Source: a virus (lineage: Duplodnaviria > Caudoviricetes). Taken from it: 34,768 nt of DNA. The position numbers and the translations under genes are program-made. Numbering within the stretch: position 1 is the first letter of the stretch; every line of letters starts with the position of its first letter. Below, piece by piece: positions 10,034 through 34,768 of the stretch. Under the pieces are notes generated by a model. That model saw nothing but the letters and a program-made list of their open reading frames with translations, made no database searches and was not told the DNA's origin. Where the stretch lies: positions 1 to 34,768 of the IMG/VR virus record IMGVR_UViG_3300030330_000585. One strand, written 5' to 3'.

Positions 10034-10050
10034 TTATATAATATTTTATT

Positions 10051-11250: not shown

Positions 11251-11263
11251 AAATTAAGAAAAA

Positions 11264-12745: not shown

Positions 12746-12758
12746 ACTATGTTTATCG

Positions 12759-12790: not shown

Positions 12791-12812
12791 TATTATTTAA
12801 TTATATTATATT

Positions 12813-13640: not shown

Positions 13641-13648
13641 CTAGTTAT

Positions 13649-13680
13649 GTGACTGCCCTTCGGGGCGGTCACTAAACTTT
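13649..13680 (+). terminator. Stem-loop, probable (weaker) terminator
   Basis: GTGACTGCCC-TTCG-GGGCGGTCAC, 10 bp with one G:U, followed by TAAACTTT. Confidence 0.7.
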
Positions 13681-13691
13681 AAAAACGAATT

Positions 13692-14441: not shown

Positions 14442-14444
14442 ACA

Positions 14445-15389
14445 ATGGGTATAATAAAATCAGCTCCTCAAACATATTACGATAATACTAATCCAGATTT
14501 TGGTAATTATCGATATGTACCGCTAAGTGATATTATAGGATCATTTAACGCGGCTTATGTAGGTAAAGGAAAAATATGTGAAGGCGTTTTAGGTATGGAC
14601 GTAAATTTCCATGCTATACGCGCTTTGCAAGAGTTGAGCTATGACACTCTTAAGTGCACTAAAGATTTAGAAGTAGAAGTGCCGTCATCACTGGTACTAG
14701 TTATGCCAGTAGATTACGTTAATTACGTGAGTTTGCAATGGGTTGATGATAACGGTATATTCCGTAGGTTATATCCTACGAATAAATCAGGTAATCCTTT
14801 TGATGTCCAAAACGCTGTAGAAGGTTACGGTGGTTTCACTACAACGCCAGTTTTAAACAGTGAGTCAGATGTTGACAGAGAGCCAGCTGACGCAGATGGT
14901 AATTTTAACTCTACAAGTTTTGATAAATTTAAAGCTCAAAACGTAAACGATATTGGTAATCTTGATGCAGACGAAATAGACGATGTGTACGGAGATTTAG
15001 TTGGTGGTAGATACGGCCTTGATCCACAATACGCGCAAAGCAACGGCACGTTCTTTGTAGATGAAACGCAAGGTAAGTTTCACTTTAGCTCGAGCGTAGC
15101 TGGTAAAACAGTGGTACTTAAGTATATTAGCGATGGTATTGTATCGACAAGTTCTGCTGGTATTGATCTCACAGCATGTGAAGTACCAAAGCTTGCTGAA
15201 GAAGCTATATACAAGCATATACTATACGGAGTGTTGTCTGCTAGAAAAGATACACCAGGCGGTTTACTTGGCCAACTCAAGAGGGAAAAGTTTGCTGAGA
15301 CAAGAAAAGCTAAGCTTAGGCTTTCAAATATTAAGCTAGAAGAATTAACTCAAGTACTTAGAGGAAGCTCTAAAATAATCAAGCACTAA
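14445..15389 (+). CDS. Probable tail tubular / ring protein
   Basis: 314 aa with MPVDYVNYV and LKYISDG...VPKLAEEAIYKHI, the pattern of tubular/adaptor proteins; directly precedes the stabilisation protein. Confidence 0.6.
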   Translation: MGIIKSAPQTYYDNTNPDFGNYRYVPLSDIIGSFNAAYVGKGKICEGVLGMDVNFHAIRALQELSYDTLKCTKDLEVEVPSSLVLVMPVDYVNYVSLQWVDDNGIFRRLYPTNKSGNPFDVQNAVEGYGGFTTTPVLNSESDVDREPADADGNFNSTSFDKFKAQNVNDIGNLDADEIDDVYGDLVGGRYGLDPQYAQSNGTFFVDETQGKFHFSSSVAGKTVVLKYISDGIVSTSSAGIDLTACEVPKLAEEAIYKHILYGVLSARKDTPGGLLGQLKREKFAETRKAKLRLSNIKLEELTQVLRGSSKIIKH

Positions 15390-15392
15390 CAT

Positions 15393-18300: not shown

Positions 18301-21300
18301 TAGTCGGTAGAAGTTTTCCACTTAGATATATCAACAATAACGCTTATGATAATTTAGGCGCTAACGGAACTATAATGCCTCCTAGTATAAATCCCTTTGG
18401 TGAATACAATACTGATTTTAACGGAAACGAAATAACTGGATCTACACCTCTTGAGAATGATACTGTTACTGCTTCAGGAGATAGAGAAAACCACCCTACA
18501 GAGTACTCTTACAATACTGGTGGTACTATGACTAATAATAGTGGCGAACCAACAAATAATACTGGTACGTACACTTGGGGTTTTTTCTCTAACAATAATC
18601 CTTTTTCAGCAGGTGTCACCGCTAGCCACATAAGTAACAATCCTATTGGGGCTTTGAACAATAATCACCAAGACGGTGACTCTGAAAAGTACTGGGAAGA
18701 GGTAGCTAACCAAGACTCTTTCTTTATAGACGGATGCACGGCTTACGATTGGAATGGTAATATACAAGTCAATCACACTAGCAACCAAGGTAACATTATA
18801 TTTGATGAGCAGTTTGATGCCACTATACGAGCTTCTGACTATGACGATGGTTACGAAGGAAGTTACACTGGTAACTGTACTTCTTTTGCTAATCCTAGTA
18901 GGGCTATATGGGGTAGTGGACGTTTAATGGATATTTCTTGGTGTCAGTTTACTAGAAACCACACGCATAATAGTGGCTCAACACCATATGCGCAAAAGCT
19001 TCAAGACTCTGCATCTGGTGATGATCAAGCTGAAGCGCTTGCGTTTATACAAGAATTAGTCACACCAGGTACTAAGTTTAGATTTTCTCGAGATCCAGAT
19101 GCAATTATATATACTACAATAGGCACATATGGATATGGATCATCTAATATTGAAGGCACGTTGAAATACAACGATCCTCTTACGTGGGTGACTTCACAAA
19201 CTACAAATGAAACTGGTGCTTGGGGTATAAGAAACTATGCTAGTACTGGTGTTCCCATGAGTACTAGGGAGAAAAGGATGTTTAACTACGGTAACATAAG
19301 ACAACGTTGGACTATTAGAGTTAGTAATAGTGCTGGTGGTGGTATTGGATCTGCTGGGCATGGTTATGATCCTACGAGAGGTACTTTGCCTTTATCTCAA
19401 GGAGGTCCGCTTACGAACGCTCCAGAGTTTAGAAGGGCTTTGCACCATGATGGTACAGATGCTGACGCTATACAGATTATGATCCCTCTTCTCGACAATG
19501 TTAATAGCGAAGAGACTTTTGTTGATAACCCAGCGGTTTGGGAAATTGAACCTAGAGAAACTGTAGAACTAGATATATACTATCAAGCTTCACCGCTTAT
19601 ACCTATTGTATTAGATAAATCTACCAACGAAGAACTTTTACCTATAGGATCTACGTTTACTTTGCCAGCACAAGAAGCTGCTCAAGGTGTTCTTGAAACG
19701 CCAGAAACTACCCATACTATCACTGGTTGGAGCGATCAAACAATGACGTTTACACCAGCCGTTACAACTGGATTTGTTTTTGAAGAAAATCAATTAATAA
19801 CATTTAATAAATATAGCAACTATTCTTTAAACGCTAGATTAGATGTTACTGCATCAGCGTCAGCGGGTGTTACTCAACTCACTCTTCACGGTGGGCCTAC
19901 AACAAATGAGAATGTTCTTAAGATACCATACCAGACTCACTTTTTAGATTATAATAACTGCTGGTGTTTTGGAAACGGAGTAGAGTCAGATAGAGTAAGA
20001 GACATGTTTAACGATCCTCAAATGGATAACGGCGTTAAAGCGTCAACAGTTGTAGCAGATCCTTCTCTTTTAACTGAAGAGCGAAAAAAGCATGGATTAA
20101 TTTGGTCAGGAATTTACAGTAGTAATACTAGTACAAACGACACTAATCAGTTTATTGCTGCTGAGCCTATCACTAAAGATATAAACCCAGTTTACGGTAG
20201 TATACAGAGGTTGTTAAATAGAGAAACTAGATTAGTTATGTTCTGCGAAGACAAGGTTTTAAGAGCAGTAACAAACAAAGACGCTTTATATAATGCGGAT
20301 GGTAATCCTCAACTAGTATCTAGCAACGCCGTTATTGGTGATGTAACACCGTATGCTGGTAAATATGGTATAGCTACTAACCCTGAGTCTATGGCTGCTA
20401 CTCCAGAGAATACGTACTTTACTGACGTTATGCGCGGTAGAGTTTTAGTGTTGTCGAACTCAGGTGATGGTATTAGGCCTATATCTGACATAGGTATGAA
20501 AGATTATTTTGCTGACTTCATGGCTGACTATGTTGACACTGCTATAGGTAGCTACGATTCTCGTAAAAAAGAATACAATATAACTATAAGTAAAAAATAC
20601 GAGCCGTACCAAGCTCAATCACACGAGCAAACTACAGTGTCATATAGTGAGTATTCTAAAGGCTGGATAAGTTTTAAGTCTTATTATCCAGACGCTGGTA
20701 TTAGCTTAAATAACAAATACTACACGTTTAAAAACGGTTTAATATACGAGCATCACTACGAACAAGACGCTGGAACTATCTATAGTAGGAATCAATTTTA
20801 TGGAACTCAATACACGTCTGACATAACACCTATATTTAACGGCATGCCAGAGTCTGTTAAAGGCTTCAATTATTTTAAGTACGAAGGATCAAACGCTAAA
20901 ATCCCTCTTTTTCAAGAGCTTCATAATCAAAATTACTTTACAGGAGATTACAGTGTTAACGACGGTTTAATTGATACAGATAATGTTACTGATGGTGAGT
21001 ATTACAATATTTATTTTAAAGTAGAAAATCAACTTGGATGGTATATAGACAACGTAACTACTAATCTTCAGACATGCGGTAATGTGTATTTCTTAAATAA
21101 GGAGGGCAAGCACTACGCGTATCCTACTGGTGAAACAACTAGTTTATCTAATCTTGACACTAAAGAGTTTAGCGTACAAGGTATAGGTATGGCTAATATA
21201 GTTCATAACGATAACACCGTGGGAGATCAAGCTACGTTAACATTTACTAACAACTTGAATCCTGTTCAGAATTTTGGTGGCGCTGGTCAAAGTGATTTTA

Positions 21301-23369
21301 CCGGTAACGCGGATCAGTTAGGTTTAGGTAGATGGACGATTACTGATGCTACTTATAACGCTACTGTAGGTACCGCTCTAGGTAGTAGCCAAACTGTAGA
21401 AATGACTATAAGTCCTTTTTACGACGATGTTTATACTGGTTTCCCTGTTAGCGCTAGTAATTTTAAGCTTGACGGCGCGACAGAGAGTCCAGCAGGTACG
21501 TTTACTGTAGACAATAACACAGGTGTAAAAAGTTCAAGTGGAAGTGCAGGAGCTGGAGACGGCCTTGAATTAGATTCTGCTGTAGCAAGCGTTGTGTTTT
21601 CTGACAACGGTGTTGCTGGAGATCCTGCTAATACCGTAAAAGTGACAGTAAACTTAAATGCTAGCTTTATACCAACAGGAAGTGGCACTACTACTCTTGA
21701 TATAGATGAAGTTGTAGCTAAAACTGCAAGAGAAAGATCTTCTTGCTTGCTAGTCCAATATGATAATTTATCTAACGCAAGCGAAACCGCAAACGCAGTA
21801 TCAGGAATTACTACCGCTAACGTGCTAAACTTATCGCACGTTATAAATCAGCACAGTGGTAATGTTAACGAAGGAGAGTCTAACTTAATTGCTCACTATA
21901 CGTTTGCAACAACTGGTACTAGTTACTATGTTGGCGGTGTAGCTAGTCCTACTGTTAGTTTTGAAAGTTTAGGAGCATATGCGCCTTATTATTCTTACAC
22001 TATAGATCTTGCGCTTACAGGTAGTAATATAACTTCTTTTGTAGTTAAAATATATTACGACCCACCTGTTGTTAGTTATTTAAGCGTTGATCCGCCAGAT
22101 ATTTGTGCACTAGCGCATAAAGCTGTAGTTAGAGCTCAAGTAAAAACGCCTGACGTAGATCTTCATGATATTCGAAGCTTATCATATACGCCTGATGTGA
22201 GCTCTATTGGTGGTATTAAAACGATTACTGTTAGAGGCGCTAAAAACGCTAAATATAAGCTTTCAGTACAAAAAAAGCAAGGATTAAACAATCCTGTTAC
22301 TACTACCACAGGTGGTTATTATGATTTTAGTAAAAATTCTTTTGTAGATGATGAGTCAGGTGTGATAGGAACTATTGATGCGACCGGATTCGTTGATCAC
22401 CTTGTGTCTTTCCCAAGCGTAAGCGCTGATACTAGATATGACATTATTGTAGATGGTATAGTAAACGGCTCTACTTTTTCTTTAGCAGATTCGATACCAA
22501 CAATTGCTGGTGATGCAACTATTACGCAACATGGTACTAGAACACTAACGTTATCTCCTACGACTCAAACAGCAGCTAATTTTGGAACTTTACCTACTGT
22601 AGATATAATTAGACCTGCTAGACACAATCGTGATAGATATTATGATTTACCTTTCTTAAAAATAAATCAAACAGGTACTACTAAAAACGTAGCTTCTACT
22701 AGACTGTTGTTAGATAAAGAGAATAAAAACATCAAGCAAGGTATGTTTGTTATAGATCCGTCTAGTAATACATCTATACCACATAACACAACTGTTGTAG
22801 GTGTAAGAAGCAACGCTATAACCCTAAGCAACGCGTGTACTATACCTGACAACACTAGATTGACATTTATAAAAGGTAACGCTAGTTTTGTGCCGTTTAC
22901 TTTAACGATACCACCTGGAATTGGTAAAACTTTATATTTAAATTCTAGCGCTAGCGTAGTTGATTCATTAGCAACAGAATCTGTTTCTTTCGTTCCTCAC
23001 ATGCCTACGTCTGACGATATTACAATTAGACCAAGCACTTCGTTATATACACCGGCACAGCAATTTGAGTTTGTTAGCAGAGTGAATGTTGGAGACATAG
23101 TCTCTGGTAATAAAGTTAGCACTAATAATCTTACGGTGGCAGCAACAGACACTTCGGCGTTTACTATAACTTTAAATCAATCAGACATAGGCGCTGAGCA
23201 ATCAGACAAGTTATCATTTTCTGGTTCAGCAGCAGCCGCCAAAGTTGTGCACGCTACTTCCGCTATAACTGACGGAGATTTAATTATAAACGGTTATCTT
23301 AAAATTGATGACGTAAACACCAGGGCTAACATACCTGTATTTATTGATAATCTAGTAAACGTAAACTAA
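15393..23369 (+). CDS. Giant tail stabilisation (muzzle/nozzle-like) protein with inserted fibre-like domains
   Basis: 2658 aa, beta-rich. Core-looking blocks: MNKDMDERLVPNGEYRDANNI, ITGINILEDFIYFTD, FSYRYKY, RLIYGNY, YQVGVVFSDEYGRE, FGNGVESDR, YGSIQRL, YGIATNPES, GWISFKSY. Confidence 0.75.
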   Translation: MAELRQDFSKARMNKDMDERLVPNGEYRDANNIQIATSDGSDIGTVQSLLSNYLRNRTEQNASEGNYNHIYTDGSQSTDFKHTVVGTVADASKDKIYYLVSGGDLYNANGYPSVRKDYIIEYDTVTETNKYVFVDIFEVDTTVSGAPGSTTTFHIALGAGDSQYDIGIRVGMNITTTATTPNTTLNTDLVVTAIAYDTDGGTNKWKITTNKAHGLSDTNAIAFEAKRVLNFSKFNLITGINILEDFIYFTDNVHEPKKISISRSIAGTGGLVELNTEPTDIFTGNTQHFHTRLVKDSSSYEESQNTLRVVVNDAGTLPVYVDESHVTVIRKSPTQPLKLKMFRQESSKINSQGEENPVTGTIENFMHDFNGNVLGPSGQLFSDADGFFFTSEIDIREGDIILGTLEENLDLETAEEDYFDYRMLCLDSPVTGPNNLTAGASPNNTFVFSLLSMSSAAQQYFDDQFLPLQNLHVKIQEKDIIFQHKFPRFSYRYKYQDGEYSTFAPFSEVAFLTGDYEYKPNKGYNFGMSNQLRTLHLTDFVGHEDIMPEDVVEIDILYKETNNPTVYSVETLKPTDDGWPGSQQLQDQNNDNRRGFIELDTDLIHAVIPSNQLLRPYDNVPRKALAQEITANRLIYGNYVQNYTIDSNPRLSVNYQRTKYSDGGFEYAPPSVKSLRNYQVGVVFSDEYGRETPVLSSDASSVFIPIQASADRNRLAVALDVKNTTIPDWAKYFSYYVKEPTAEYYTMAMDRWYNAEDGNIWISFPSADRNKIQEDDTIILKKAAGSNEAIKVDNRYKVLAISNEAPDFIKETKKVLGTVVASLGTIGNTSTGNLYPLPGVNRISVTSADFIKQFGHNLHVITPDKLLLRIEGAGETSDLYEVAALTRLIEGTGPIGGGNFAITTKKPFGEDMSFTSTTNSGLDAIDEIRLTLIQVDVLNKPEFDGRFFVKIFKDPTLAKYVLIQQQEDLVVGRSFPLRYINNNAYDNLGANGTIMPPSINPFGEYNTDFNGNEITGSTPLENDTVTASGDRENHPTEYSYNTGGTMTNNSGEPTNNTGTYTWGFFSNNNPFSAGVTASHISNNPIGALNNNHQDGDSEKYWEEVANQDSFFIDGCTAYDWNGNIQVNHTSNQGNIIFDEQFDATIRASDYDDGYEGSYTGNCTSFANPSRAIWGSGRLMDISWCQFTRNHTHNSGSTPYAQKLQDSASGDDQAEALAFIQELVTPGTKFRFSRDPDAIIYTTIGTYGYGSSNIEGTLKYNDPLTWVTSQTTNETGAWGIRNYASTGVPMSTREKRMFNYGNIRQRWTIRVSNSAGGGIGSAGHGYDPTRGTLPLSQGGPLTNAPEFRRALHHDGTDADAIQIMIPLLDNVNSEETFVDNPAVWEIEPRETVELDIYYQASPLIPIVLDKSTNEELLPIGSTFTLPAQEAAQGVLETPETTHTITGWSDQTMTFTPAVTTGFVFEENQLITFNKYSNYSLNARLDVTASASAGVTQLTLHGGPTTNENVLKIPYQTHFLDYNNCWCFGNGVESDRVRDMFNDPQMDNGVKASTVVADPSLLTEERKKHGLIWSGIYSSNTSTNDTNQFIAAEPITKDINPVYGSIQRLLNRETRLVMFCEDKVLRAVTNKDALYNADGNPQLVSSNAVIGDVTPYAGKYGIATNPESMAATPENTYFTDVMRGRVLVLSNSGDGIRPISDIGMKDYFADFMADYVDTAIGSYDSRKKEYNITISKKYEPYQAQSHEQTTVSYSEYSKGWISFKSYYPDAGISLNNKYYTFKNGLIYEHHYEQDAGTIYSRNQFYGTQYTSDITPIFNGMPESVKGFNYFKYEGSNAKIPLFQELHNQNYFTGDYSVNDGLIDTDNVTDGEYYNIYFKVENQLGWYIDNVTTNLQTCGNVYFLNKEGKHYAYPTGETTSLSNLDTKEFSVQGIGMANIVHNDNTVGDQATLTFTNNLNPVQNFGGAGQSDFTGNADQLGLGRWTITDATYNATVGTALGSSQTVEMTISPFYDDVYTGFPVSASNFKLDGATESPAGTFTVDNNTGVKSSSGSAGAGDGLELDSAVASVVFSDNGVAGDPANTVKVTVNLNASFIPTGSGTTTLDIDEVVAKTARERSSCLLVQYDNLSNASETANAVSGITTANVLNLSHVINQHSGNVNEGESNLIAHYTFATTGTSYYVGGVASPTVSFESLGAYAPYYSYTIDLALTGSNITSFVVKIYYDPPVVSYLSVDPPDICALAHKAVVRAQVKTPDVDLHDIRSLSYTPDVSSIGGIKTITVRGAKNAKYKLSVQKKQGLNNPVTTTTGGYYDFSKNSFVDDESGVIGTIDATGFVDHLVSFPSVSADTRYDIIVDGIVNGSTFSLADSIPTIAGDATITQHGTRTLTLSPTTQTAANFGTLPTVDIIRPARHNRDRYYDLPFLKINQTGTTKNVASTRLLLDKENKNIKQGMFVIDPSSNTSIPHNTTVVGVRSNAITLSNACTIPDNTRLTFIKGNASFVPFTLTIPPGIGKTLYLNSSASVVDSLATESVSFVPHMPTSDDITIRPSTSLYTPAQQFEFVSRVNVGDIVSGNKVSTNNLTVAATDTSAFTITLNQSDIGAEQSDKLSFSGSAAAAKVVHATSAITDGDLIINGYLKIDDVNTRANIPVFIDNLVNVN

Positions 23370-23370
23370 C

Positions 23371-23760
23371 ATGCCATCAGCAACATTAAATTTTTCAGCA
23401 CCAATAAATGTGTCATGTCAAGTAGGTGACACCGCTTACTATGTAGACACTAACTCAGTAGGTGGTTTTACAGTATCTACTGACTCTATGGCAACTCAAG
23501 AAAACACTATTATAGAGATAGGTGAAATACGTGAAATACAAGGGCCAAAAACTAATACGCCGGCTATAATAGTTGAAACAACTTTAGGTTACAATGAGTT
23601 AAACGGGTTAAATAAGTTTATATTCTTTTCAAAAAACAATAAAGCTAATTTAAGCTCACCTTTAGGTTATTACGCTAGCGTTAAGTTCGTAAATGATAAC
23701 AACTATAGAACTGCAGAGCTCTACGCTATTGAGGCGGACATATACGAAAGTAGTAAATAA
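23371..23760 (+). CDS. Small tail-associated protein
   Basis: 129 aa starting 1 nt after the large tail gene; ends LGYYASVKFVND...AELYAIEADIYESSK. Confidence 0.65.
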   Translation: MPSATLNFSAPINVSCQVGDTAYYVDTNSVGGFTVSTDSMATQENTIIEIGEIREIQGPKTNTPAIIVETTLGYNELNGLNKFIFFSKNNKANLSSPLGYYASVKFVNDNNYRTAELYAIEADIYESSK

Positions 23761-23763
23761 ACA

Positions 23764-23795
23764 CTAAAAAGTGTAACTATATATCAGTACACTTT
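23764..23795 (+). promoter_or_regulatory. Candidate promoter/operator, copy 2, with an 8-bp inverted repeat
   Basis: CTAAAAAGTGTAACTATATATCAG resembles 1256-1279. AAAGTGTA (23768-23775) and TACACTTT (23788-23795) form a perfect inverted repeat. Confidence 0.4.
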
Positions 23796-23806
23796 AATTA
23801 AATTTA

Positions 23807-24280
23807 ATGACTGATAATAAGTTACAAAAAAACTTTAAGTCAGACGTAAAAAATCTACTTAACACATTAGCAAAACACGCTGACGGAGAAAATATAATTG
23901 TAGGTACGAAACAAGATCCTATAGTTACAAACTCAGATAAACTACCTATAGAACATTTTTTTATGGACGGAGTTTACGTTAGAAAAATGACTATGTATAA
24001 GGACTCTGCTGTTGTAGGCGCGATACATAAGCATTTGCATATGTGTTTTTTATTATCTGGGCACTTAACAGTGTCTAGCGAACATGGTGTTGTAGAATAT
24101 AAAGCGCCTTGCCATGTAATCGCTACACCAGGGACTCAAAGAGTTTTATACGCTAACGAAGAAAGCGTTTGGTACAACGTACATAAAAATACAACTAACA
24201 CTGAAGACGTTAAACAGATTGAATGTGATTTAGTGGTATTAAATCAAGAAGAGTATGAAGAATATATTAAAAATAAATAA
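23807..24280 (+). CDS. Cupin-fold protein
   Basis: HFFMDGVYVRKM...VVGAIHKHLHMCFLLSG.LTV...PGTQR...VWYNVH fits the double-stranded beta-helix motifs with His ligands. Confidence 0.72.
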   Translation: MTDNKLQKNFKSDVKNLLNTLAKHADGENIIVGTKQDPIVTNSDKLPIEHFFMDGVYVRKMTMYKDSAVVGAIHKHLHMCFLLSGHLTVSSEHGVVEYKAPCHVIATPGTQRVLYANEESVWYNVHKNTTNTEDVKQIECDLVVLNQEEYEEYIKNK

Positions 24281-24283
24281 ATC

Positions 24284-25072
24284 ATGGCATTTGCGTTAAG
24301 TACTGTAGCAATTGTAGGTGGAGCTATAGCCGCTGCCGGAGGCGTAGCTAAAGCTATTGATGGTGGTATTAAAGCTAAAGAAGCAAAGCTAGACGCTGAA
24401 AGGGCTGAAAAAGAGATGGAGAAGCAGAAGAATCTCTTTGCTAGTTTAGATACTAGTAATCCATACCTTAATATGGAGAACACTATGGAAGATCTTACGG
24501 TAAACCAGAAAGAAGCTCAGTTTATGGCTCAACAATCACAGCAGTCGCAAGCTAATATATTGCAAAGCATGCGTGGAGCGGCTGGAAGCTCTGGTATTGC
24601 AGCGCTAGCTCAAACACTGGCTAATCAAGGTGCTTTAGATGCGCAAAAAGCCGCGGCTTCAATTGGAGCACAAGAAGCAGCTAATCAAAAGTTACGTGCA
24701 GAAGAAGCTAGTAGAATACAAGGTCTTGAGCGTGAAGGCGAACTTATTAGTAGAGAAGCTGAAATGGGTAAAGTATCATCTTTACTTGGCATGGCAGCAG
24801 ACGAAGCTGCTGCAGCGCGTCAAGCACAGGCTGAGTTTAGAGACCAAATGTTTGAAGGTATATCAGATACTGGTGGCGCTCTCATGAGCATGGGTGGTGC
24901 TAAAGGTGGTGTTGGTGGTAGTGGTAGTAAAGGTGGCGTTGGTAGTGATATAGAAAAGTTGCTTGGAGATTTAAGCGAAGAAGAACTACAAGAGCTAATA
25001 AGAAAAACAGGTGGAGACGCTTCAGGAGGAGGTACAGGCTTACAATTACCAGGCGGTGATGGTTTAGTTTAA
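24284..25072 (+). CDS. Probable internal virion/ejection protein
   Basis: Gly/Ala hydrophobic N-terminus (AIVGGAIAAAGGVA), Gln/Ala coiled coil and Gly-rich tail; typical position after the nozzle. Confidence 0.65.
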   Translation: MAFALSTVAIVGGAIAAAGGVAKAIDGGIKAKEAKLDAERAEKEMEKQKNLFASLDTSNPYLNMENTMEDLTVNQKEAQFMAQQSQQSQANILQSMRGAAGSSGIAALAQTLANQGALDAQKAAASIGAQEAANQKLRAEEASRIQGLEREGELISREAEMGKVSSLLGMAADEAAAARQAQAEFRDQMFEGISDTGGALMSMGGAKGGVGGSGSKGGVGSDIEKLLGDLSEEELQELIRKTGGDASGGGTGLQLPGGDGLV

Positions 25073-25084
25073 ATTTTAAAAATT

Positions 25085-26239
25085 ATGGCAGAATCAACAA
25101 GATCATTAGATTACGGTTTAAGTGGAGATATATTAGACAGGGTTGCTGGCGCTAGAGAGGCTAAGTACGAACCTGGCAAAAGAACTATATACGACACAGC
25201 TGTAGATTTAGGCACAAAAGCTTTAGAAAAAGGTAAAGAAAAACAAGCTGCTCAACAAGAGTCTTTAGCTGATTGGGATAGTGCTTTCGACGCTATGGGT
25301 GATCGTGGTTCTTGGGCTTCACCTCAGTTATTCGATCAATTCCAGGAGTTAGAAAGAGGATATAGAGATGCTTATATAGAAGCTGTTAGATCTGGTAACA
25401 AAGCTGATCAGCAGAGAATGTTAAAAGAACAAGCAGCTAGATCATCATCTCTACAGGGTTGGAAAGACGTAATGGAAACAGCTAAACAAATAAACGATGA
25501 AGTTGGTTGGGGCGCGCTTGTAACTAGAAACTCTAAAAGTAAGGCTATATTACAAGCTTTAGCTAAAGGTGACGGTAGCGCTGTACCTGTTGTTGGTGAA
25601 AATGGAGAGTTGTTATTTCAAATAAACGGCGAAAGATATAGCCGTAGTCAAATAGATGATTTAGTTGCTAAAGGTACAAATCCGAAAGCATTAAGATCGC
25701 AATTTTTGAACGGCGCGGCTAGTCAAATGGAAGCTGGTTTAAAAAACGGTGTATTTGAATACAGTTTGGTTAACGAAACAAACTTAAATAGCCTTGATAA
25801 CGATAAAATGTATACATACATATATGATGCGTGGACAGGACCTAAGTCATTTGCTGAGGAGATTAAAGCTATTGAAGGAGCTACGTTTTCAATACAAGTG
25901 CCAGAGAATCACCCTTTAGACACAACTGGTGATGGCACGGTAGATATACAAGACTTTCAGGTTAAAGGCATAGATATTGATACTATGTTAGAAGCTATGC
26001 AAGATCCAGAAAATATAGACATAGCTAAGCAAGTTATTGCAGACTACATGACTATAAAGCAGAAAATTAATTACGAGAAAGGTAAAAAAATATATGACGA
26101 AAGACAGCAAGGTAGGTTTGCGAATATGACAGATAAACAGCAAATAGACGCTATGGTAGAAGCTGGTGGTATTACTAAAGACGCGCTTCTAGCAATGTAC
26201 CCAGATTCAGAAAGCTACATTAACAGTTTAAATCTATGA
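25085..26239 (+). CDS. Probable second internal virion/ejection protein
   Basis: 384 aa, helical; ATGA-coupled to the giant ORF; has an EF-hand-like loop DTTGDGTVDIQDF. Confidence 0.6.
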   Translation: MAESTRSLDYGLSGDILDRVAGAREAKYEPGKRTIYDTAVDLGTKALEKGKEKQAAQQESLADWDSAFDAMGDRGSWASPQLFDQFQELERGYRDAYIEAVRSGNKADQQRMLKEQAARSSSLQGWKDVMETAKQINDEVGWGALVTRNSKSKAILQALAKGDGSAVPVVGENGELLFQINGERYSRSQIDDLVAKGTNPKALRSQFLNGAASQMEAGLKNGVFEYSLVNETNLNSLDNDKMYTYIYDAWTGPKSFAEEIKAIEGATFSIQVPENHPLDTTGDGTVDIQDFQVKGIDIDTMLEAMQDPENIDIAKQVIADYMTIKQKINYEKGKKIYDERQQGRFANMTDKQQIDAMVEAGGITKDALLAMYPDSESYINSLNL

Positions 26240-29200
26240 ACGAAGAGTTAAAGCTACTAGTATCAAGACTTAGAGAGCAAGGTGTGCCTCAAGAGAAGAT
26301 CAACTTGCTAATCAACAAGTATATGTCTAAACAAGAAGATTTAGACTTAAACATACCTGACGCTAATGTTATACCTGTTAGTCAACGTGACTTAGACGAT
26401 GGTTTAAAGCCTGAGTCATATGTTAACTCTACTGCTTGGAGTTCATCAGGTTTAGATAGATCTATATACTATGATGAGCAAGGAAACTTACTTACGGTAA
26501 ATGCTGCCGGTGTTCCGTTTGATCCACTTACAGACGTTGGTTATTCTTTAGCATTAAAGGACGAAGAAAGAAGAGAAGAGTTGATAAGAGAGTCAGAAGC
26601 TCCAGAGATTACAACTACTGAAGGTTTATTTACTGTTACAGATAAAGATCAAGAGAACGCTGTTAACGCAGCTAACGCTACTTACGACAGCTATGAAGCT
26701 CTAGACCAGCCATACGACAGCTCTAATCTACGTTACGAAACAACTAATTATATAGGTGCTGAAGGTGCTAGTACAGAAACCGTAAGAATATCAACTTTAG
26801 CAGACGGAGAAACTCAGGTTAGAGATGTAATGGATCCTAGTCAACGTCTTTACTATGAAGGCTTAGACGTTGTAATACCTGGCGAAACTCCTCGACAAAG
26901 AGAAGCTAGATTTATGAGTATCTGGCTAAGTCAAGGCGAAGCAATGGTAAGAAATCCTAACTTACCTAGACCTCAAGCCTTTTCAAGCTCAGCTTCCGAA
27001 TTAACTTTTACCGCAGAACAATATGCTCAATGGAGACTTGGTTTAGCTAGAGATCCTAACAACGATTTATACGATCCGTATTTAGCTAGCAATGTTTATG
27101 ACAAGTTTGAAGAAGGTACTGATTTAAACAAATTATACCAAGTAGAAAAAACTTTACTAGCTATACAAAGGTTAGAAAAAGAAACCGGCGAAAAAATAAA
27201 CTTTACTCTAGGCGAAGATAAAGTAAGTGATTTTCCTGGTTTACAAGAGACAATTGACAACATATCTAACGATGATCCAGAGTTAAAAGATATGATTGTT
27301 AAAAGTGAATCTAGAATTAATAGAAGCAATCAGATCAGCCAGCAAGCTCTAGAATTAGCTGAGCAACAGATTGAAGAAGAGAAAGATTTTCCTTCAAAAC
27401 CAGGTATAGCAAACTATTTTTTTGAATCTCCTGAAGCTCAAGAAGAAGCCGCTAAGCAAGCTGAACAAGATTTAGATTTTCTTGAAGCAGACATCAAAAA
27501 AAAGTCTTTACAATACAACGCTATATCAGAGCAATATGCAGACGTTAACAGTCGATTAACAGATGTAAATAAAGAGCTTCAAAAAGAAGAATATAAAGAT
27601 CCTAAAGCTCATATAGAGAAAATAAAAGCCAAATACGATTTAACAACGCGAGAAGGTGTTGAAGCAGCTAATAAAGAAATACAAGAGTTTATTGGTAAGT
27701 ACTCTAATTTAATCGAAGAGTATAATACTCTAAGACCTGCGGTTCAAGACACAGCTAATGCTTTAATAAGATTAGAGCAAGAAATTAGCGATCTTGGAGT
27801 TAGAGAACAAGATTTAAACGCGTTTACAACTACAATTAGTAAAAACCATAGAACGGCTACTAAAATTGCTTTAGCTTTTGCTAACGAAACAGTTGATCTA
27901 GTTCAAAGCGCCGCTGAGTTTGTTTATATGGTAAATCCTTTAGGAGCTCTAGCTGATGAGTTAGTAGATTACGCGGGTGAAGATTCTTTGATTGGTACTA
28001 TTGTTGAAGTAGCAAGATACGCTACAGCTATACCTACTGGCGGAATAACTTTATACTCTGGAGAACGAAGAGAAGATGTAACTCAAGCTATTGACGGATA
28101 TCAGCAAAACGTAAGCTCGATGGTTGGCGAAGCTGTTCGCTTTGATGATATTGAAGGCGTTGGAGATGCTATAGAGTGGGCTTTAGTAACTGGTGCAGGT
28201 CAAGTTACGCAGCTAGCTTTACTTGCCGCTACAGGTGGTACAGCTGGTTTAATAGTCATGGGTGCTACAGCTGCTGGTCAAAAGTTCTCAGCTATGGATC
28301 AGCAAAGAGATTTATACAGGCAAACTGGTGGCATGTACGGCCAAAACCATAATTTTGCTACTATGTATGCTAACTCTATTACTACAGGTAGTATAGAAGC
28401 TTTATCTGAAAGAGTAACTTTAGGGCTATTAAAAGGAACTGGTGGTGTTGTGTCTAATAGAGTATTTAAAAGCGTAGGTTCTAAAAAAGCGACTGATATG
28501 TTTAGGCGTCGCTTGTTTACAAAAGAAAACTTAAGGTACTCTACTAAGAAACTTATTGACATAGCTGAGGAAGGCGGTTCTGAAGCGTTAGCCACTATAG
28601 GTGGTAATTACATTGATAGGTTAAGCGGGGATAAAACTGTAAATATATTTGATGACGTAGCAGAGTCTTTCGTGACTGGTGCGTTGATAGGCTCTACTTT
28701 ATCAATGCCACACGTGTTTAAAGACGCATACAGTGCTTTCCAAAGTGTAGAAGCATCTCAAGCTATAGCACAAAACTTTGACAGAATACAGGCTAATCAC
28801 GATGTAATAAACGATCCTAAATCTTCTCAACAAGCTAAGGACGCAGCGTTAGCGGCAATTGAAGAATTAACTGCACAAAACGCAGAGTTTATAGCGTTAG
28901 ATTTAAAAAGAGTTGATTCTCTTTCAAACGCTCAAAAAAGAGAGCTGGTTGAGATAGAAAAATCTCAAAGAAACTTAGAAGTACGGTTTGCCGAGATTAA
29001 TGCATCTGATATGACGTTAGAGCAAAAGCAAAAAATAGCTAACGAAATGAACGCTGGCTATAACAGAAACCTTGCTCGTAAAAACGAAATACTAAAAAGC
29101 ATACCTACAGATGAAGTTCTTAAGAACCACGAAAACGAAATAAAGCGTATAGAAGAAGAGAGCGCTAGATTAGTTGCTGAAGGTGGCCCAGCTATCAATG

Positions 29201-32200
29201 TTACTAGAGCAAATGGCAAGAACGACGCAGATATTGCAGAGCAGTTTAAAACGTGGAAGAATAACGCTAAGAAAAAAGGCAATGTAAAAATTGCAGCTTC
29301 GGAAGACGGTACGCAGGTTTATGGTGCTATGGTGCCAATTTTAGATAATAGCGGAAATGTTATTAACTACGAGATGTTCTTCAATGATAAGAACATTTAT
29401 GAAGACGGTGTCACTACTACTGGATCACACGAGCTATTACACGCGGCGGTATTTAACACTATAAGGGCTAATCCTGCCTTAAGAAATAGATTTGGTGATG
29501 CTATAAATAGAATACTAGAAGGGCCTGGTGTAAAGATATCTAATAAAGCTCAAAAAAAGTTAGACCGCGTTAATCAGTATAGCAAAGAACAGAGAGGTGA
29601 AGAGCTATTTGCGATAGTATCTGAACTAATGGTGTCTGGTGATATAACCATCGATAGTGGTGCTGTGGGTAGGTTTAAAGACCTATTACGTAGAACTTCT
29701 ATGCAGACAACAGACACTGACATAGAATTTAATGATGATACTGACGTTAGAAACTTCTTAAAAGATTATTCAAGATCAAGAAAGAAAGGTCTTGCTGATA
29801 AACGTATAACAAGCTTGTTTACTAAATCAGCTAAAGGTAAGTTAGTTGAAACTGAGATTAGTAGAGAAGAAGCTAAAAGAGTTGTTGAAGGTAGATTTGA
29901 AGAGGCTTTGCAAGAAAGTTATATGAATACGCTGTCTGCTAGTATTAGATCTAATCCAGACCTACGTCAAGAGTTTGATCAATTTACTAAAAACGAAGAT
30001 GGAACTCCTAAGTACAAAACTCAACAAGAGTGGGAGAGCAGTCAAGACTACTTAGATGCATACAAAAAGATAGTAGAAACTAACCTTCTAGATGGCTTAA
30101 TTCAGACCAAGATGGTAGAGCGCGGATTGCCGCCTGCTGCTCTCAGAGATTTTACTAGAAAGGTTAAAGACAATATAAGTCTAAGATTCTTACCTTCAAT
30201 AGATAAGAAAACAGGTAGAGTAAAACCTGATTCTGGTTATAGGATTTCAAACGATAGTTTGTTTGGCTGGTTAACAGGTGTTGCTGGTGGAGCTGGTAAG
30301 TCTGTTATATACAGAGCTAAAGGTGATGTTATGAACGAGTATAAAGAAAGCGGTAATCTTGAAACTGTTTCTCTTGATGCTCCTATAGGTGAAACAACTA
30401 CGTATGAAGCTACTATAGAAGCTGAAACTGACGCGTTCATGCAGCAGCTTGAAGAAGCTGATTTAAGTAAGAATCGTGCAGAGCGTGAAGCTAGAAAGCC
30501 AAAGAGAGTTGTTAACGAGCTAAACATCGACAGTGACGGTAAAGCCGCCATAAACAAAACTGTAGCAGACGCGGCTATTGACATAGCTGGATTACAGTAT
30601 AAAGACGTTAAAAAGCTTGGTAACTCTGTCGACGCGCCGCTATATAAAACACTACAGGTTATATCAGAAAAGTTTGGCGTAAATCCTAAAAACGTTATAA
30701 AATCTGCTAACTTAAATACTAAGCAGCGTAAAGCAGCGCAGCAGTTTATTAACAAAAATGCAGAGTTTTTATTAGAAATGTTACCTGATGGTGAGACTAG
30801 AAGCGGAGAAGCTACTGGTGTACCTAGAGTATTGTTAAATAATTTCTACGAAAAAGGTGAGAGATTAAAGTATAAAGACGGAGCTACGGCTGCGGGTAAA
30901 TTTACACAGCAAAAGCGAACTGACATAACACTTGAGCAGTTTAAAGAAGCTTTCGGTATTAGACCAGACGGTACTTTAGATAATAACAGAAAATACGACG
31001 GCGCTATAAACGCTTTAATTAATCAAGCTACTATGTTAGCTAACAACCAAGCTTTACGTGAGAACGCTATGAAGAGAGGCACTGTGTCAGAAGCGGTAGT
31101 TGCTAAATTAGGTGAAGGTAAAGCTGAGGTAATGTTTAGTGTTAAGGTAAGAGACAAAGTTAAAAACACTTTTGATCAACTATACCCTGATCTAATAACA
31201 GCTGTAGCAGCATCTAACACTGGCGATATAGACTCTATAAGAGTAGCTGTTGAGAGTGTTTACGGTAAGGTACTTAGTACGTCTGAAATTAATAGGCTAG
31301 TAAATGAAATATACGATCAAGCCGACGAGTACAACACTATAAACCAAGACCTTAAAGGTGTTGGCGTAGACGTGCCTGTGAGCTTAGAGCAGTTTTTACA
31401 AGATAAATACGAAGGCAAGAACGTAGAAAAAGGAATATTAAAAGCTTTAGAGCCAAAATTACCAAAAGATGAAGATGGTAAAACAATTAGAATAGGTACT
31501 CATTTCTTAAATGTAGATAGAATAAATAATCAACGATCTGTGCCTGGTCTATTTGTTGATGGAGCTAGAGCACAACTAGACAAAAACGGAAATAGAATTT
31601 ATTCAGACAAGCAAATAGCTGAAATGCTTATAGCTCACGTCGCACCTATGTTTGCTGGCTCGGGTAGAATAGCTGATCGTAGATTTATTGTACAAGAAAC
31701 AAAGCCTAGTGGTGAAAGAGTTGTGGTTAAAGATCCCAATTGGAAACCAACTAGAATAAATAAAAAAGGCCAAGAGGTACCTCAGAAAAATAGAAAACAA
31801 GCTTGCGAAAGTATGCCTGATTTTATTGGTATACTTAACACCCTTGGTTTAGGAAATATAGAAAAGGTTGGAACAGGACCTAACTCGTATTACACACTAG
31901 ATGGGGTTGCTTTAGATACAACCTTAATACCTGAAACGTCAGAGGCTAGACTGTCAAGGTCTAAGACAGAAGAGGCAGAAGCTGAGCTATTTGAGCAAGG
32001 TAAAAAGCAGGCTGAAGACGCGAGGGTTGTTACAAAAATTATACTAGATTCTTTGTACGCTAAAGTTATCGATCCTAACAGTAGTTACGACCATGTTGAT
32101 TTCGCTATGACTTTAACCAGCCTTGGCTCTAGTATGCAAGCACCTATGAGACGAGCTGCTTTGTTTGAGTACTTCATGGAAGGTATTGAAGATGTAGTTG

Positions 32201-34768
32201 CTAATAGAGGTGACAAAAGTATCGGATCTGTCACTGAGTTTGAGCATTTAAAACCTCAAGAAGAAGCTATTGGAGAGATTATACACTCTTACTTAACTAC
32301 TGGTGAGCTTGATATGCGTATATTTGAAGGCGGTGGACCTTATAGACCATATAAGACTGGGGTTATTAGCAAGAGCATGGATGATGCGGTAACAGATGCT
32401 GGTCATAAGTTTACTTCACCAAGACTAGGAAGAGGTGACAGTAGACAATACTCGTTCGAAGCTATTCGTGATAATAGAATTAGACCTATTAGAAGTATTG
32501 ATCCAGCTAAAAAAGGCACTAATAAAGAGTTTGTTGGTAGAGAGTGGGTGCAAATGAATGACGCTATAGCTAGAGACGATGGTACTGTAATAAGAGATAT
32601 GAAGGTTCTAGGTGGTATATTTGGAAACATATCTTTTTCGAAGCGACCTGCTAAAAACAAAGGAGCTAGCGTACTTGATTTTGATGACACATTAGCTACA
32701 ACTAAATCTAACGTGTTGTTTACTGCGCCTGACGGAACCAAAGGTAAGCTAAACGCAGAAGAGTACGCTAGAGATTACGTTGAGCTGCTTGGTCAAGGCT
32801 ATGAGTTTGATTTTTCAGAGTTTAACAAGGTGGTTGAAGGAGCTCCAGGTCCGTATATGGATAGGGCTAAAAAACTAGCTAAAAAGTTTGGCACTGATAA
32901 CATATTTATATTGACTGCTCGCGCACCACAATCTCAAGAAGCTATATTTGAGTTTATGAAATCGCAGGGCTTAGAGATACCTATTGACAATATTATAGGT
33001 TTAGGTAACTCTACTGGTCAAGCTAAAGCTAATTGGATCGCGGAAAACTTAATAAAAGAAGGTTATAATGATATAGAGTTTGCAGATGACGCGTTGCAAA
33101 ACGTCGAAGCTGTTAAAAACATGTTTGAGCTTTTTGACGTTAAAAGTAAAGTACAACAAGCTAAAGCAGAGTTTAGTAGGCGTGCGCCTAAACAAATGAA
33201 TGACATCATTGATGAAGGTGCCGCAGACCTTGATTCAGACTTTAACATTATACTAGAAGAAACTCAAGGTGTAGCTAGATTCAAGAAGTTCTCTGCTGGT
33301 AAAGCTAGACAGCGTGGTAAAAATAAAGGTAGATTTAAGTTCTTCATACCACCATCAGCAGATGACTTCGCTGGTTTGCTATATAGTTTCATGGGTAAAG
33401 GAAAGCAAGGAGATAAGCACCATAAGTTTTTTAAAGTTAACTTATTTGATCCGTTTAGTAAAGGCATAAGGTTATTAAATAGAGCAAATCAAATAGCTGC
33501 TAATGATTTAAAAAACCTACGTAAAGCTTTTCCTGATGTACGTAACAAGCTTAAAAATAAACTACCAGGCTTAGAATATACTACTGAAGATGCTATAAGA
33601 GTATACAACTGGAACAGACAAGGGTTTGATGTACCGGGTTTAGCACAAACAGATTTAAATGCTATTGTAAAAGCTATTGAAGGTGATGCTAAATTAAAAG
33701 CATTTGCAGATGGAGTTAGCGTTGTTAACATAAACGAGCCAATAGCTCCTGATGACTCGTGGCTTGGCGGAACTATAGCATCTGATATCAATGAAGCTCT
33801 TGAAAACGCTAGATCAACTTACTTGCAAGAGTGGATAGATAATAAGAACGCTATATTCACTGAAGCTAATATGAATAAAATTGAAGCCGTATACGGTTCT
33901 AATTTTAGAGAAGCTTTAGAAGATGTGTTATTCCGTATGGAAAACGGTGGTAATAGATCTCAAGGTCAAGGTAGATTAATGAACAACTTTACTAATTGGA
34001 TACATGGTTCTATTGGTACTACGATGTTCTTTAACGCTAGATCAGCTATGCTGCAAATGATATCTAACGTTAACTTTATCAACTGGAGCGACAACAATAT
34101 GCTAGCGGCTGCTAAAGCGTTTGCTAATCAACCTCAATACTGGAAAGATGTAGCAATGATATTTAACTCTGACTTCTTAAAACAAAGAAGAGGTAGAATA
34201 CAGACTGATGTAAACGCTGCTGAGCTACTAGCTGAGATACGTGATTCTAAAAACCCAATGAAGAAAGCTACAGCTTACTTACTTCAATTAGGTTTTACAC
34301 CAACGCAAATTGCGGATAGCTTCGCTATTGCAACTGGTGGTGCTACGTTCTACAGAAACAGAGTTAATTCGTATATCAAAGAAGGTATGTCTAAGAAAGA
34401 CGCTGAAACAAAAGCGTTTGAAGATATGATGGAGATTGCTGAAGAAACTCAACAGTCTACAAGAGAAGATAGAATATCTCAACAGCAAGCTTCACCTCTC
34501 GGTAAGTTTATACTTGCTTTCCAAAACACACCTATGCAGTACAATCGTTTGATGAAAAAAGCTGCTCAGGATTTAGTTAACGGAAGAGGTAGTGCTACAG
34601 CCAATGTCTCTAAGATCGTTTATTACGGTGCTATACAGAATATGATATTCTACGGGCTTCAGCAGGCTTTATTTGCCGCGATGTTCGGTGACGACGAAGA
34701 AGATAAGATCGATGATAAGCAGAAAGGGCGTATGATCAATGGTATGCTTGATACTGTATTAAGAGGTT
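26236..34768 (+). CDS. Giant polyvalent (probable ejection/cargo) protein, at least 2844 aa, 3'-truncated
   Basis: ATG at 26236 overlaps the upstream TGA (MNEELKLLVSRLREQG...). The frame reads open in the segments I translated, and the ORF track lists no closed plus-strand ORF here, consistent with no stop before the window end. Contains HELLH, sigma-like blocks and HAD motifs I-IV. Confidence 0.92.
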   Translation, partial: MNEELKLLVSRLREQGVPQEKINLLINKYMSKQEDLDLNIPDANVIPVSQRDLDDGLKPESYVNSTAWSSSGLDRSIYYDEQGNLLTVNAAGVPFDPLTDVGYSLALKDEERREELIRESEAPEITTTEGLFTVTDKDQENAVNAANATYDSYEALDQPYDSSNLRYETTNYIGAEGASTETVRISTLADGETQVRDVMDPSQRLYYEGLDVVIPGETPRQREARFMSIWLSQGEAMVRNPNLPRPQAFSSSASELTFTAEQYAQWRLGLARDPNNDLYDPYLASNVYDKFEEGTDLNKLYQVEKTLLAIQRLEKETGEKINFTLGEDKVSDFPGLQETIDNISNDDPELKDMIVKSESRINRSNQISQQALELAEQQIEEEKDFPSKPGIANYFFESPEAQEEAAKQAEQDLDFLEADIKKKSLQYNAISEQYADVNSRLTDVNKELQKEEYKDPKAHIEKIKAKYDLTTREGVEAANKEIQEFIGKYSNLIEEYNTLRPAVQDTANALIRLEQEISDLGVREQDLNAFTTTISKNHRTATKIALAFANETVDLVQSAAEFVYMVNPLGALADELVDYAGEDSLIGTIVEVARYATAIPTGGITLYSGERREDVTQAIDGYQQNVSSMVGEAVRFDDIEGVGDAIEWALVTGAGQVTQLALLAATGGTAGLIVMGATAAGQKFSAMDQQRDLYRQTGGMYGQNHNFATMYANSITTGSIEALSERVTLGLLKGTGGVVSNRVFKSVGSKKATDMFRRRLFTKENLRYSTKKLIDIAEEGGSEALATIGGNYIDRLSGDKTVNIFDDVAESFVTGALIGSTLSMPHVFKDAYSAFQSVEASQAIAQNFDRIQANHDVINDPKSSQQAKDAALAAIEELTAQNAEFIALDLKRVDSLSNAQKRELVEIEKSQRNLEVRFAEINASDMTLEQKQKIANEMNAGYNRNLARKNEILKSIPTDEVLKNHENEIKRIEEESARLVAEGGPAINVTRANGKNDADIAEQFKTWKNNAKKKGNVKIAASEDGTQVYGAMVPILDNSGNVINYEMFFNDKNIYEDGVTTTGSHELLHAAVFNTIRANPALRNRFGDAINRILEGPGVKISNKAQKKLDRVNQYSKEQRGEELFAIVSELMVSGDITIDSGAVGRFKDLLRRTSMQTTDTDIEFNDDTDVRNFLKDYSRSRKKGLADKRITSLFTKSAKGKLVETEISREEAKRVVEGRFEEALQESYMNTLSASIRSNPDLRQEFDQFTKNEDGTPKYKTQQEWESSQDYLDAYKKIVETNLLDGLIQTKMVERGLPPAALRDFTRKVKDNISLRFLPSIDKKTGRVKPDSGYRISNDSLFGWLTGVAGGAGKSVIYRAKGDVMNEYKESGNLETVSLDAPIGETTTYEATIEAETDAFMQQLEEADLSKNRAEREARKPKRVVNELNIDSDGKAAINKTVADAAIDIAGLQYKDVKKLGNSVDAPLYKTLQVISEKFGVNPKNVIKSANLNTKQRKAAQQFINKNAEFLLEMLPDGETRSGEATGVPRVLLNNFYEKGERLKYKDGATAAGKFTQQKRTDITLEQFKEAFGIRPDGTLDNNRKYDGAINALINQATMLANNQALRENAMKRGTVSEAVVAKLGEGKAEVMFSVKVRDKVKNTFDQLYPDLITAVAASNTGDIDSIRVAVESVYGKVLSTSEINRLVNEIYDQADEYNTINQDLKGVGVDVPVSLEQFLQDKYEGKNVEKGILKALEPKLPKDEDGKTIRIGTHFLNVDRINNQRSVPGLFVDGARAQLDKNGNRIYSDKQIAEMLIAHVAPMFAGSGRIADRRFIVQETKPSGERVVVKDPNWKPTRINKKGQEVPQKNRKQACESMPDFIGILNTLGLGNIEKVGTGPNSYYTLDGVALDTTLIPETSEARLSRSKTEEAEAELFEQGKKQAEDARVVTKIILDSLYAKVIDPNSSYDHVDFAMTLTSLGSSMQAPMRRAALFEYFMEGIEDVVANRGDKSIGSVTEFEHLKPQEEAIGEIIHSYLTTGELDMRIFEGGGPYRPYKTGVISKSMDDAVTDAGHKFTSPRLGRGDSRQYSFEAIRDNRIRPIRSIDPAKKGTNKEFVGREWVQMNDAIARDDGTVIRDMKVLGGIFGNISFSKRPAKNKGASVLDFDDTLATTKSNVLFTAPDGTKGKLNAEEYARDYVELLGQGYEFDFSEFNKVVEGAPGPYMDRAKKLAKKFGTDNIFILTARAPQSQEAIFEFMKSQGLEIPIDNIIGLGNSTGQAKANWIAENLIKEGYNDIEFADDALQNVEAVKNMFELFDVKSKVQQAKAEFSRRAPKQMNDIIDEGAADLDSDFNIILEETQGVARFKKFSAGKARQRGKNKGRFKFFIPPSADDFAGLLYSFMGKGKQGDKHHKFFKVNLFDPFSKGIRLLNRANQIAANDLKNLRKAFPDVRNKLKNKLPGLEYTTEDAIRVYNWNRQGFDVPGLAQTDLNAIVKAIEGDAKLKAFADGVSVVNINEPIAPDDSWLGGTIASDINEALENARSTYLQEWIDNKNAIFTEANMNKIEAVYGSNFREALEDVLFRMENGGNRSQGQGRLMNNFTNWIHGSIGTTMFFNARSAMLQMISNVNFINWSDNNMLAAAKAFANQPQYWKDVAMIFNSDFLKQRRGRIQTDVNAAELLAEIRDSKNPMKKATAYLLQLGFTPTQIADSFAIATGGATFYRNRVNSYIKEGMSKKDAETKAFEDMMEIAEETQQSTREDRISQQQASPLGKFILAFQNTPMQYNRLMKKAAQDLVNGRGSATANVSKIVYYGAIQNMIFYGLQQALFAAMFGDDEEDKIDDKQKGRMINGMLDTVLRG
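29310..29660 (+). other. Zincin metallopeptidase (MPTase-like) domain within the giant ORF
   Basis: YGAMV...YEMFFN strands, HELLH at 29428-29442, EELFA at 29599-29613. Confidence 0.75.
30058..30700 (+). other. Sigma70-like module within the giant ORF
   Basis: AYKKIVETNL, MVERGLP, GYRISNDSLFGWL, VSLDAPIGE and TLQVISEKFGVNPKNV occur in sigma region order 2.1, 2.2, 2.3, 3.2, 4.2. Confidence 0.5.
32662..33140 (+). other. HAD-superfamily phosphatase domain within the giant ORF
   Basis: Motif I VLDFDDTL (DFDDT 32677-32691), motif II ILTAR (LTAR 32911-32922), motif III K (33025), motif IV FADD (33079-33090). Confidence 0.85.

Follow-up and report, generated by a model that had tools for sequence, protein, structure and literature searches.

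The window, that is, the whole stretch of DNA analysed, is 34,768 nt long and derives from an uncultured marine virus (Table 1). The IMG/VR record has a completeness of 53%, and the stretch covers the late half of a crAss-like phage, without the early region. Its genes are ordered GroEL/GroES, terminase, portal, capsid, ring genes, a 2658-aa muzzle, two to three small genes and a giant ORF. GC-rich hairpins with TTCG loops, terminator-like by eye, are located 3' of the capsid gene (12760-12790) and of the next gene (13648-13673). Between the muzzle block and the cargo genes there is a 157-aa gene on the + strand (23807-24280), with PHROG matches to 'short tail fiber/adhesin' families.

By best hits only, the closest cultured matches of the terminase are in Elemovirus (46%), and those of the portal in Elemovirus (40%) and phi38:1 (39%). 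Since the best cultured relatives, Elemovirus and the Cellulophaga phages, infect Flavobacteriaceae, the window phage is likely to have a host of this family too. The relation to Pervagoviridae, Pachyviridae and Elemovirus is one of best hits. GroEL-bearing genomes of such kind were termed 'group 2' Flavobacteriaceae phages, with a sigma-70 gene mentioned in one of them, in the available text of Nishimura et al. (PMC5332604). Most marine 'Crassvirales' calls fall beside Pachyviridae and Pervagoviridae, according to the available text of PMC13558084.

Table 1. Features of the window, with the evidence on which each is placed.
Feature	Position	Strand	Basis
DNA stretch (IMGVR_UViG_3300030330_000585, positions 1-34,768)	1..34768		Caudoviricetes virus, uncultured, marine
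crAss-like virion module: terminase, portal, scaffold-like, capsid, ring genes, muzzle	5450..23369	+	PHROG and Pfam matches
TGTAACTA, candidate late-promoter motif	23772..23779	+	single window copy, upstream of the gene preceding the cargo genes
Giant probable virion cargo protein	26236..34768	+	ORF, 2844 aa, open at window end
Region common to 'structural proteins' of cultured relatives, aa 560-950	27913..29085	+	family profile: phi38:1 gp101 iE 4e-29; Elemovirus gp18 iE 6.5e-31
HELLH zincin metallopeptidase motif, aa 1065-1069	29428..29442	+	H1065, E1066, H1069 kept in at least 90%
Sigma region-2-like domain, aa ~1242-1380 (blocks 1-3)	29959..30375	+	AlphaFold pLDDT mostly >80; VIA ranks; alignment to RpoD/RpoH/FliA
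SLD-led acidic, disordered linker	30367..30477	+	pLDDT <50 over aa 1379-1415; region-3.2-like in this subtype only
Second conserved domain, aa ~1415-1636, with the block proposed as '4.2'	30478..31143	+	pLDDT 90, pTM 0.87
Putative HAD-like phosphatase domain; DFDDT at aa 2148, DDA at aa 2284	32671..33162	+	motifs read from sequence, conservation

The giant gene closes the virion module, just as gp18 does in the gene order of Elemovirus and gp101 in that of phi38:1; both of these are annotated 'structural protein' by their depositors. Its closest complete homologues measure 3055-3081 aa, and about 230 aa of the window protein lie beyond the window end. The protein has a single cysteine. Its zincin region is homologous to Elemovirus gp18; E1122 and E1123 are conserved like the metallopeptidase motif itself, and in 179 of 181 long homologues an HExxH sequence is found at most 450 aa upstream of the sigma-2 domain described below. 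In crAss001, the virion stores large cargo proteins including the RNA polymerase and presumably ejects them, according to the available text of PMC10172136. Synteny and homology with the 'structural proteins' make it likely that the giant protein of the window is virion cargo and is injected.

Towards the C-terminus lies a domain that we take to be HAD-like. A Pfam search gave no match there; motif I is present in 157 of 162 long homologues. P-loop kinase inserts matched by Pfam AAA_33/Zeta_toxin occur in part of the homologues (e.g. L027:565-11130), suggesting that the HAD-like domain and the kinase may form a polynucleotide kinase-phosphatase-like pair. An EHLKP string (aa 2003-2007; window 32242-32256, + strand), in which E2003 and H2004 are conserved, is presumably reminiscent of an HNH-type nuclease motif. 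In the relative G003, a 259-aa Hint-domain (Vint) gene is placed directly 5' of the giant gene (L026:18758-19537, + strand).

The sequence-only reading had proposed a sigma70-like module in this protein, composed of five blocks assigned to regions 2.1-2.3, 3.2 and 4.2. The five peptides are indeed found at the coordinates given, in frame and collinear in the ORF (aa 1275, 1293, 1334, 1378 and 1472), and their quoted sigma70 counterparts occur in E. coli K-12 RpoD at 375, 394, 424, 505 and 572. Structure, distant homologues and conservation bear out a region-2-like domain; the full sigma70 module is not supported, region 3 being absent and no sigma-4 match having been found.

An AlphaFold model of aa 1205-1640 was built from 52 sequences (pLDDT 82). 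When it was searched by VIA against 48,161 chains, ranks 1-26 were all sigma, aligned on model residues ~38-176; 22 are named sigma in the entry title and four are chains of transcription initiation complexes. Their Z scores (4.6-6.0) are in a range also reached by common helical arrangements, the first unrelated chain having Z 4.6, and the weight of the evidence is in the unbroken run of ranks. The nearest solved folds are CnrH (4cxf_A), SigW (5wuq_A), SigR (1h3l_B), SigB (8x6g_H) and sigma32 (8hkc_E), with 78-94 residues aligned, an rmsd of ~3 A and Z 5.6-6.0. In the structural search suggested at the outset, with the two-domain model, Foldseek returned nothing from the PDB at E<=0.001, and from BFVD a family member only. 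The top ESM Atlas match was a sigma-70 cluster (0.94, under the Atlas recognition threshold).

By sequence alone, none of the five blocks is convincing; the assignment of blocks 1-3 to regions 2.1-2.3 is recovered through structure and distant homologues. When profiles of these three blocks, built from 53 non-redundant close homologues, were run on seven sigma factors, they missed the proposed sigma regions. With the window protein as query, Pfam gave no sigma family at E<=1, and neither phmmer and a 15-sequence profile against the PDB nor a PHROG search gave a sigma match. Profile comparison, also suggested beforehand, was equivocal: HHalign against six E. coli sigmas reproduced the 2.1-2.3 register of the alignment, with a probability of only 4-5%. 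The distant homologues are far more sigma-like than the window protein. Their motifs are REQLVENNLGMV (2.1), DFIQEVKDGL and DEIETGKRGI (2.2), and FDPxKNxSLxGW and EYxPESGVPLAAYI (2.3); the canonical counterpart to the 2.2-2.3 strings is DLIQEGNIGL...KFEYRRGYKFSTYA. Pfam Sigma70_r2 is the top match in one of 22 distant homologues (E 9.2e-5; 22.6 bits, below the cut-off of 24). The family comprises two sigma-2 subtypes with strongly different 2.3-2.4 sequences. Sigma70_r2 matched none of 12 subtype-B fragments; a subtype-B profile against the PDB placed SigE first (E 0.16) and sigmaK fourth (E 0.53), and subtype B and P0210-like members retain a good 2.2 helix signature.

Block 3 (30235-30273) had been aligned with region 2.3 through a 'GYR' match. 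This match is false and the register was five residues off: aa 1326-1337, which contain the GYR, form an insertion absent from 75% of the 53 close homologues. In the true register N1339 corresponds to G424, L1342 to F427 and W1345 to Y430. The latter residue of region 2.3 stacks on the flipped -11 base, and an aromatic residue stands at its position in all 83 non-redundant sequences (W 57%, Y 31%, F 12%). In these 83 sequences, the F427 position is almost always hydrophobic and the D403 position (D1305 in the window) carries D or E in 71%. Q406 and E407 are replaced by R1308 and K1309 in the window subtype, the E407 position being K in 30%, E in 18% and D in 10% of the 83 sequences; the W433/W434 pair is absent. 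E407K is listed among substitutions altering sigma70-core interactions in the available text of PMC3326312.

The domain is conserved in the family. It occurs in 19 of 19 genomes and in 181 of 184 long homologues, a count biased upward because these homologues were gathered by the sigma-2 region itself. A word search yielded 162 homologues of the region and there are 174 among the 50%-representatives, nearly all of them proteins of 2000-4200 aa or fragments; one subtype alone is represented by 192 IMG/VR contigs. In these searches no cultured phage matched the sigma-2 region, and neither the giant proteins nor the separate sigma described below had a full-length match. A weak sigma-2 score in Elemovirus gp18 disappeared with a broader profile and was discarded. 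The modelled fold and the homologues support the view that aa 1242-1380 are a domain predicted to fold like sigma-70 region 2, the part that grips the polymerase and opens the promoter. It is not filed under the sigma-70 family because its score does not reach the Pfam cut-off, there is no recognisable domain 4, and its binding to the core is a proposal.

The claim that region 3 is missing was confirmed, since the SLD motif follows the G424 equivalent after 39 aa, as against 81 in RpoD. S1379 and D1381 of the linker are present in 100% of 53 close homologues (D/E in 79% of 83 diverse ones). Block 4, VSLDAPIGE (30367-30393), had been read as region 3.2; it lies at the start of the linker, and its profile falls on 3.2 of RpoD, RpoS and RpoH (p 0.03-0.08). 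The linker is region-3.2-like in the window subtype, and that of subtype B has no such likeness.

Block 5 (from 30649), presented as region 4.2, belongs to a separate, well-folded domain of ~220 aa without a sigma-4 match. Among the 50 best matches of the structure search no sigma-4 is found (best Z 3.9); Foldseek gave nothing against the PDB at E<=0.001, and ESM Atlas gave nothing. In the model the second helix of the '4.2' block has six residues only. The block profile settles for the most part on helix-turn-helix patterns of the sigma-3.1 type; on RpoD 4.2 it reaches only p 0.35. The sigma-4 identity was therefore rejected for want of support from structure search, HHalign and block profile. 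The domain has a conserved LPxG...G.xTG motif. Of 184 long homologues, 179 carry it together with sigma-2, and it comes after sigma-2 in 179 of these 179. In its structure search, ranks 1, 5 and 13 (Z 3.4-3.9) go to TasR, an IS110 recombinase and TasH. These three presumably share a Nop-like nucleic-acid-binding domain, and a Nop-like identity of the second domain may be taken as a lead only.

The searches for an RNA polymerase agree with the premise that the phage has no virion enzyme of this kind. PF00623, a model that may miss crAss-type enzymes, matched in none of 22 genomes, near-complete relatives included. The double-psi-barrel catalytic aspartate motif is absent from the 2844 aa of the window protein up to the window end, and a catalytic-type string was seen in one of 162 long homologues. 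An ordinary 251-aa sigma-70 with regions 2 and 4 (HHalign 98.5%) is encoded separately in 17 of 19 family genomes and in none of three cultured or reference relatives; it is 53-68% identical across genomes. G005, whose ORF list includes neither the separate sigma nor the primase-helicase, is probably cut at this locus. G014 carries two copies of the gene (3695-4444 and 64909-65658). The family sigma-2 profile and the phage's own separate sigma gave no alignment (probability 0.25%), which argues that the embedded domain is not a recent duplicate.

A promoter-like motif, TACGR-N9-GATAAT, usually with ACAAA-N5 before it (in a fuller form, ACAAACTAAATACGA-N9-GATAAT), is repeated in the relatives. 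There are 7, 7, 7 and 5 copies in G001, G002, G003 and G005, all on the early strand (0-0.1 expected), and 3-11 copies in 10 of 14 further genomes that are at least 90% complete. Its strict form is found in the early region of 14 of 19 family genomes, and of 17 when variants are admitted: G017 has seven copies with the spacer one base shorter, G012 two near matches and G016 one. The remaining two, G018 and G019, both incomplete, have the sigma-2 domain and no copy of the motif. The window, being without the early region, has none, nor do Elemovirus, the Manatee Spring genome and phi38:1 (0/3), and neither sigma-like protein was found in the three cultured relatives. The contig stretch L030:10300-15200 (- strand) carries an early promoter-like ACAAA-N5-TACGA-N9-GATAAT. 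In four marine metatranscriptome assemblies, contigs are mostly of relatives, and many match only at early-motif sites; transcription starts are not visible in them.

An ATG begins exactly 6 nt 3' of GATAAT in 8 of 26 sites, a spacing that would suit a -10 box whose messages are leaderless. The motif is unlike any of the sigma motifs of F. psychrophilum given in the available text of PMC9723704, namely TAnnTTTG, TAnnTTGY, sigma-54 and the CGT box. The host-type TTTG..TAnnTTTG was rejected as early promoter: each of 7 genomes has 2-7 scattered matches and no early cluster. In G003, G001 and G004 the separate sigma gene lies downstream of an early-motif copy on the same strand, so that another factor must start its transcription. 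A second motif, TGTAAYTA, occurs in 15 of 114 late-strand upstream regions of relatives, where the background is 0.024 per region; it is the less specific one, with 6 of 79 early-strand regions and 3 of 34 in two reference relatives. GTGTGATATA, a variant of this candidate late motif, is seen near position 1262, after groES. As early motif, sigma-2 domain and separate sigma occur together in one clade, they are not independent observations.

These features led to the proposal, which we consider just on the probable side, that a virion-injected sigma-2 module docks on the host core RNA polymerase and opens early promoters; its fold is predicted, and packaging, injection and binding are inferred. 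The giant protein would be packed in the virion and injected upon infection. Its sigma-2 domain would dock on the host core enzyme and open the phage early promoters, likely the repeated ACAAA-N5-TACGA-N9-GATAAT sites, with GATAAT acting like a -10 box. Reading of the TACGA/ACAAA part further upstream may fall to the next domain (aa 1415-1636), which is not a sigma-4, and the neighbouring zincin may release the sigma-2 module. Early transcription would include the gene for the separate sigma-70, which would then read TGTAAYTA before late genes. Which factor reads which motif is something we infer. More tentatively, and on balance rather short of probable, an abundant marine crAss-like flavobacterial clade may have swapped a virion RNA polymerase for a virion-delivered minimal sigma. 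This sigma-2, with a new upstream-reading domain, would be cut by the zincin from a 3000-aa cargo polyprotein and would direct the host core to a non-host, often leaderless early promoter, initiating a two-sigma cascade.

The injected-sigma proposal draws on the run of VIA ranks 1-26, the 2.1-2.3 pattern of distant homologues, the aromatic Y430 position and the wide conservation. It is also favoured by the synteny and homology of the cargo protein, by the failure to find an RNA polymerase and by an early motif that is repeated in the family genomes and absent from the three cultured relatives. Against it stand the modest Z scores, the low HHalign probability, R1308/K1309, the lack of W433/W434, of region 3 and of a recognisable region 4, and the domain without the motif in the incomplete G018 and G019. 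The weightiest objection concerns the two divergent sigma-2 subtypes, which share a single early motif, while the separate sigma is 53-68% identical throughout.

This same objection nourishes another model, which assumes that the domain is a sigma-2 descendant no longer working with polymerase and having some other job in the ejected protein, e.g. gripping single-stranded or opened DNA at genome entry. The reader of the early motif would then be either the separate phage sigma, first expressed weakly by the host machinery, or an alternative sigma of the host. A motif constant across two divergent subtypes, together with a well conserved separate sigma, fits the separate sigma as reader. The R/K residues at the Q406/E407 positions, and the wide variation there, would also be understandable, and Flavobacteria have several ECF sigmas and incompletely known promoters, according to the available text of PMC9723704. 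However, the separate sigma gene itself lies behind a copy of the motif, a second motif is available for the late genes, and subtype B and P0210-like members have kept the 2.2 helix signature. We regard this model as unlikely, while giving it some weight.

Alternatively, the domain could be a decoy: by binding a host anti-sigma factor or the clamp helices of beta', it would displace host sigma-A and shut down or free the polymerase without opening promoters. Only region 2, the main core-binding domain, is retained, with no sigma-4 match, and injected modifiers of host polymerase are known, such as T4 Alt in the available text of PMC5512222. It is difficult to see, however, why the Y430 equivalent should be aromatic throughout while core-contact residues vary, and a phage without its own polymerase needs the host enzyme working at non-host promoters; decoy action appears distinctly improbable. 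Convergence of a small helical bundle within a long helical structural protein, compatible with Z<=6.0, the lack of a significant sequence match for the window protein and the scarcity of Sigma70_r2 matches among homologues (1/22 and 0/12), is very improbable given the sigma chains at ranks 1-26 of 48,161, the distant-homologue pattern in register with 2.1-2.3 and the independent language-model search (ESM Atlas) that likewise points to sigma-70.

If the injected-sigma reading, the best one, holds, the domain works like a minimal sigma. Infections are known to start from host-type promoters, with an injected polymerase, or with injected modifiers of the host polymerase; an injected sigma, if true, would be another way. 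It would explain early expression from non-host promoters, without a polymerase gene, in common marine phages, and a sigma-2 acting without sigma-4 would bear on the minimal requirements of promoter opening. Both the domain and a candidate promoter have been delimited. The literature covered, consisting of the main texts of freely accessible papers, yielded no account of a sigma domain carried in a virion. The word 'sigma' is absent from the main text of the polyvalent-protein paper (PMC5512222) and, in the available text of PMC11502894, occurs only as a supplier's name.

Like sigma-70 domain 2 (PF04542), the domain has a predicted helical bundle, an aromatic residue at Y430, a hydrophobic one at F427 and an acidic D403 position. 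It differs in being embedded in a protein of ~3000 aa, with no region 3 and no recognisable region 4, in its R/K at Q406/E407 and in remaining below the Pfam cut-off. Phage sigma factors such as T4 gp55, SPO1 gp28/gp34 and phiEco32 gp36 steer the host core polymerase to phage promoters, as is proposed here, and the clade also has a separate gene of this sort. Those factors are small, stand-alone and made after infection, whereas the window domain resides in a probable virion protein and would act before phage gene expression. Sigma factors are also encoded by group-2 jumbo phages, according to the available text of PMC7824862.

The polyvalent proteins (PMC5512222, in its available text) and T4 Alt resemble the giant protein in being large and multidomain, with a zincin and variable enzymatic inserts, and in their presumed delivery along with the DNA; the window protein, however, gave no match to a Pfam family of polyvalent proteins. 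Elemovirus and the Pervagoviridae (phi38:1) share the gene order and a giant structural protein homologous in aa 560-950, and Elemovirus also GroEL/ES, but their giant proteins are without the sigma-2 domain, and they have no separate sigma and no early motif. N4-like phages carry a virion RNA polymerase. With the crAss-like virion RNA polymerases, as they appear in the available text of PMC10172136, the window shares a giant protein at the cargo position, a zincin nearby and the same proposed purpose in early transcription. Unlike the crAss-like and N4-like enzymes, the window protein has no polymerase motif or Pfam match, and the phage would supply specificity rather than the enzyme.
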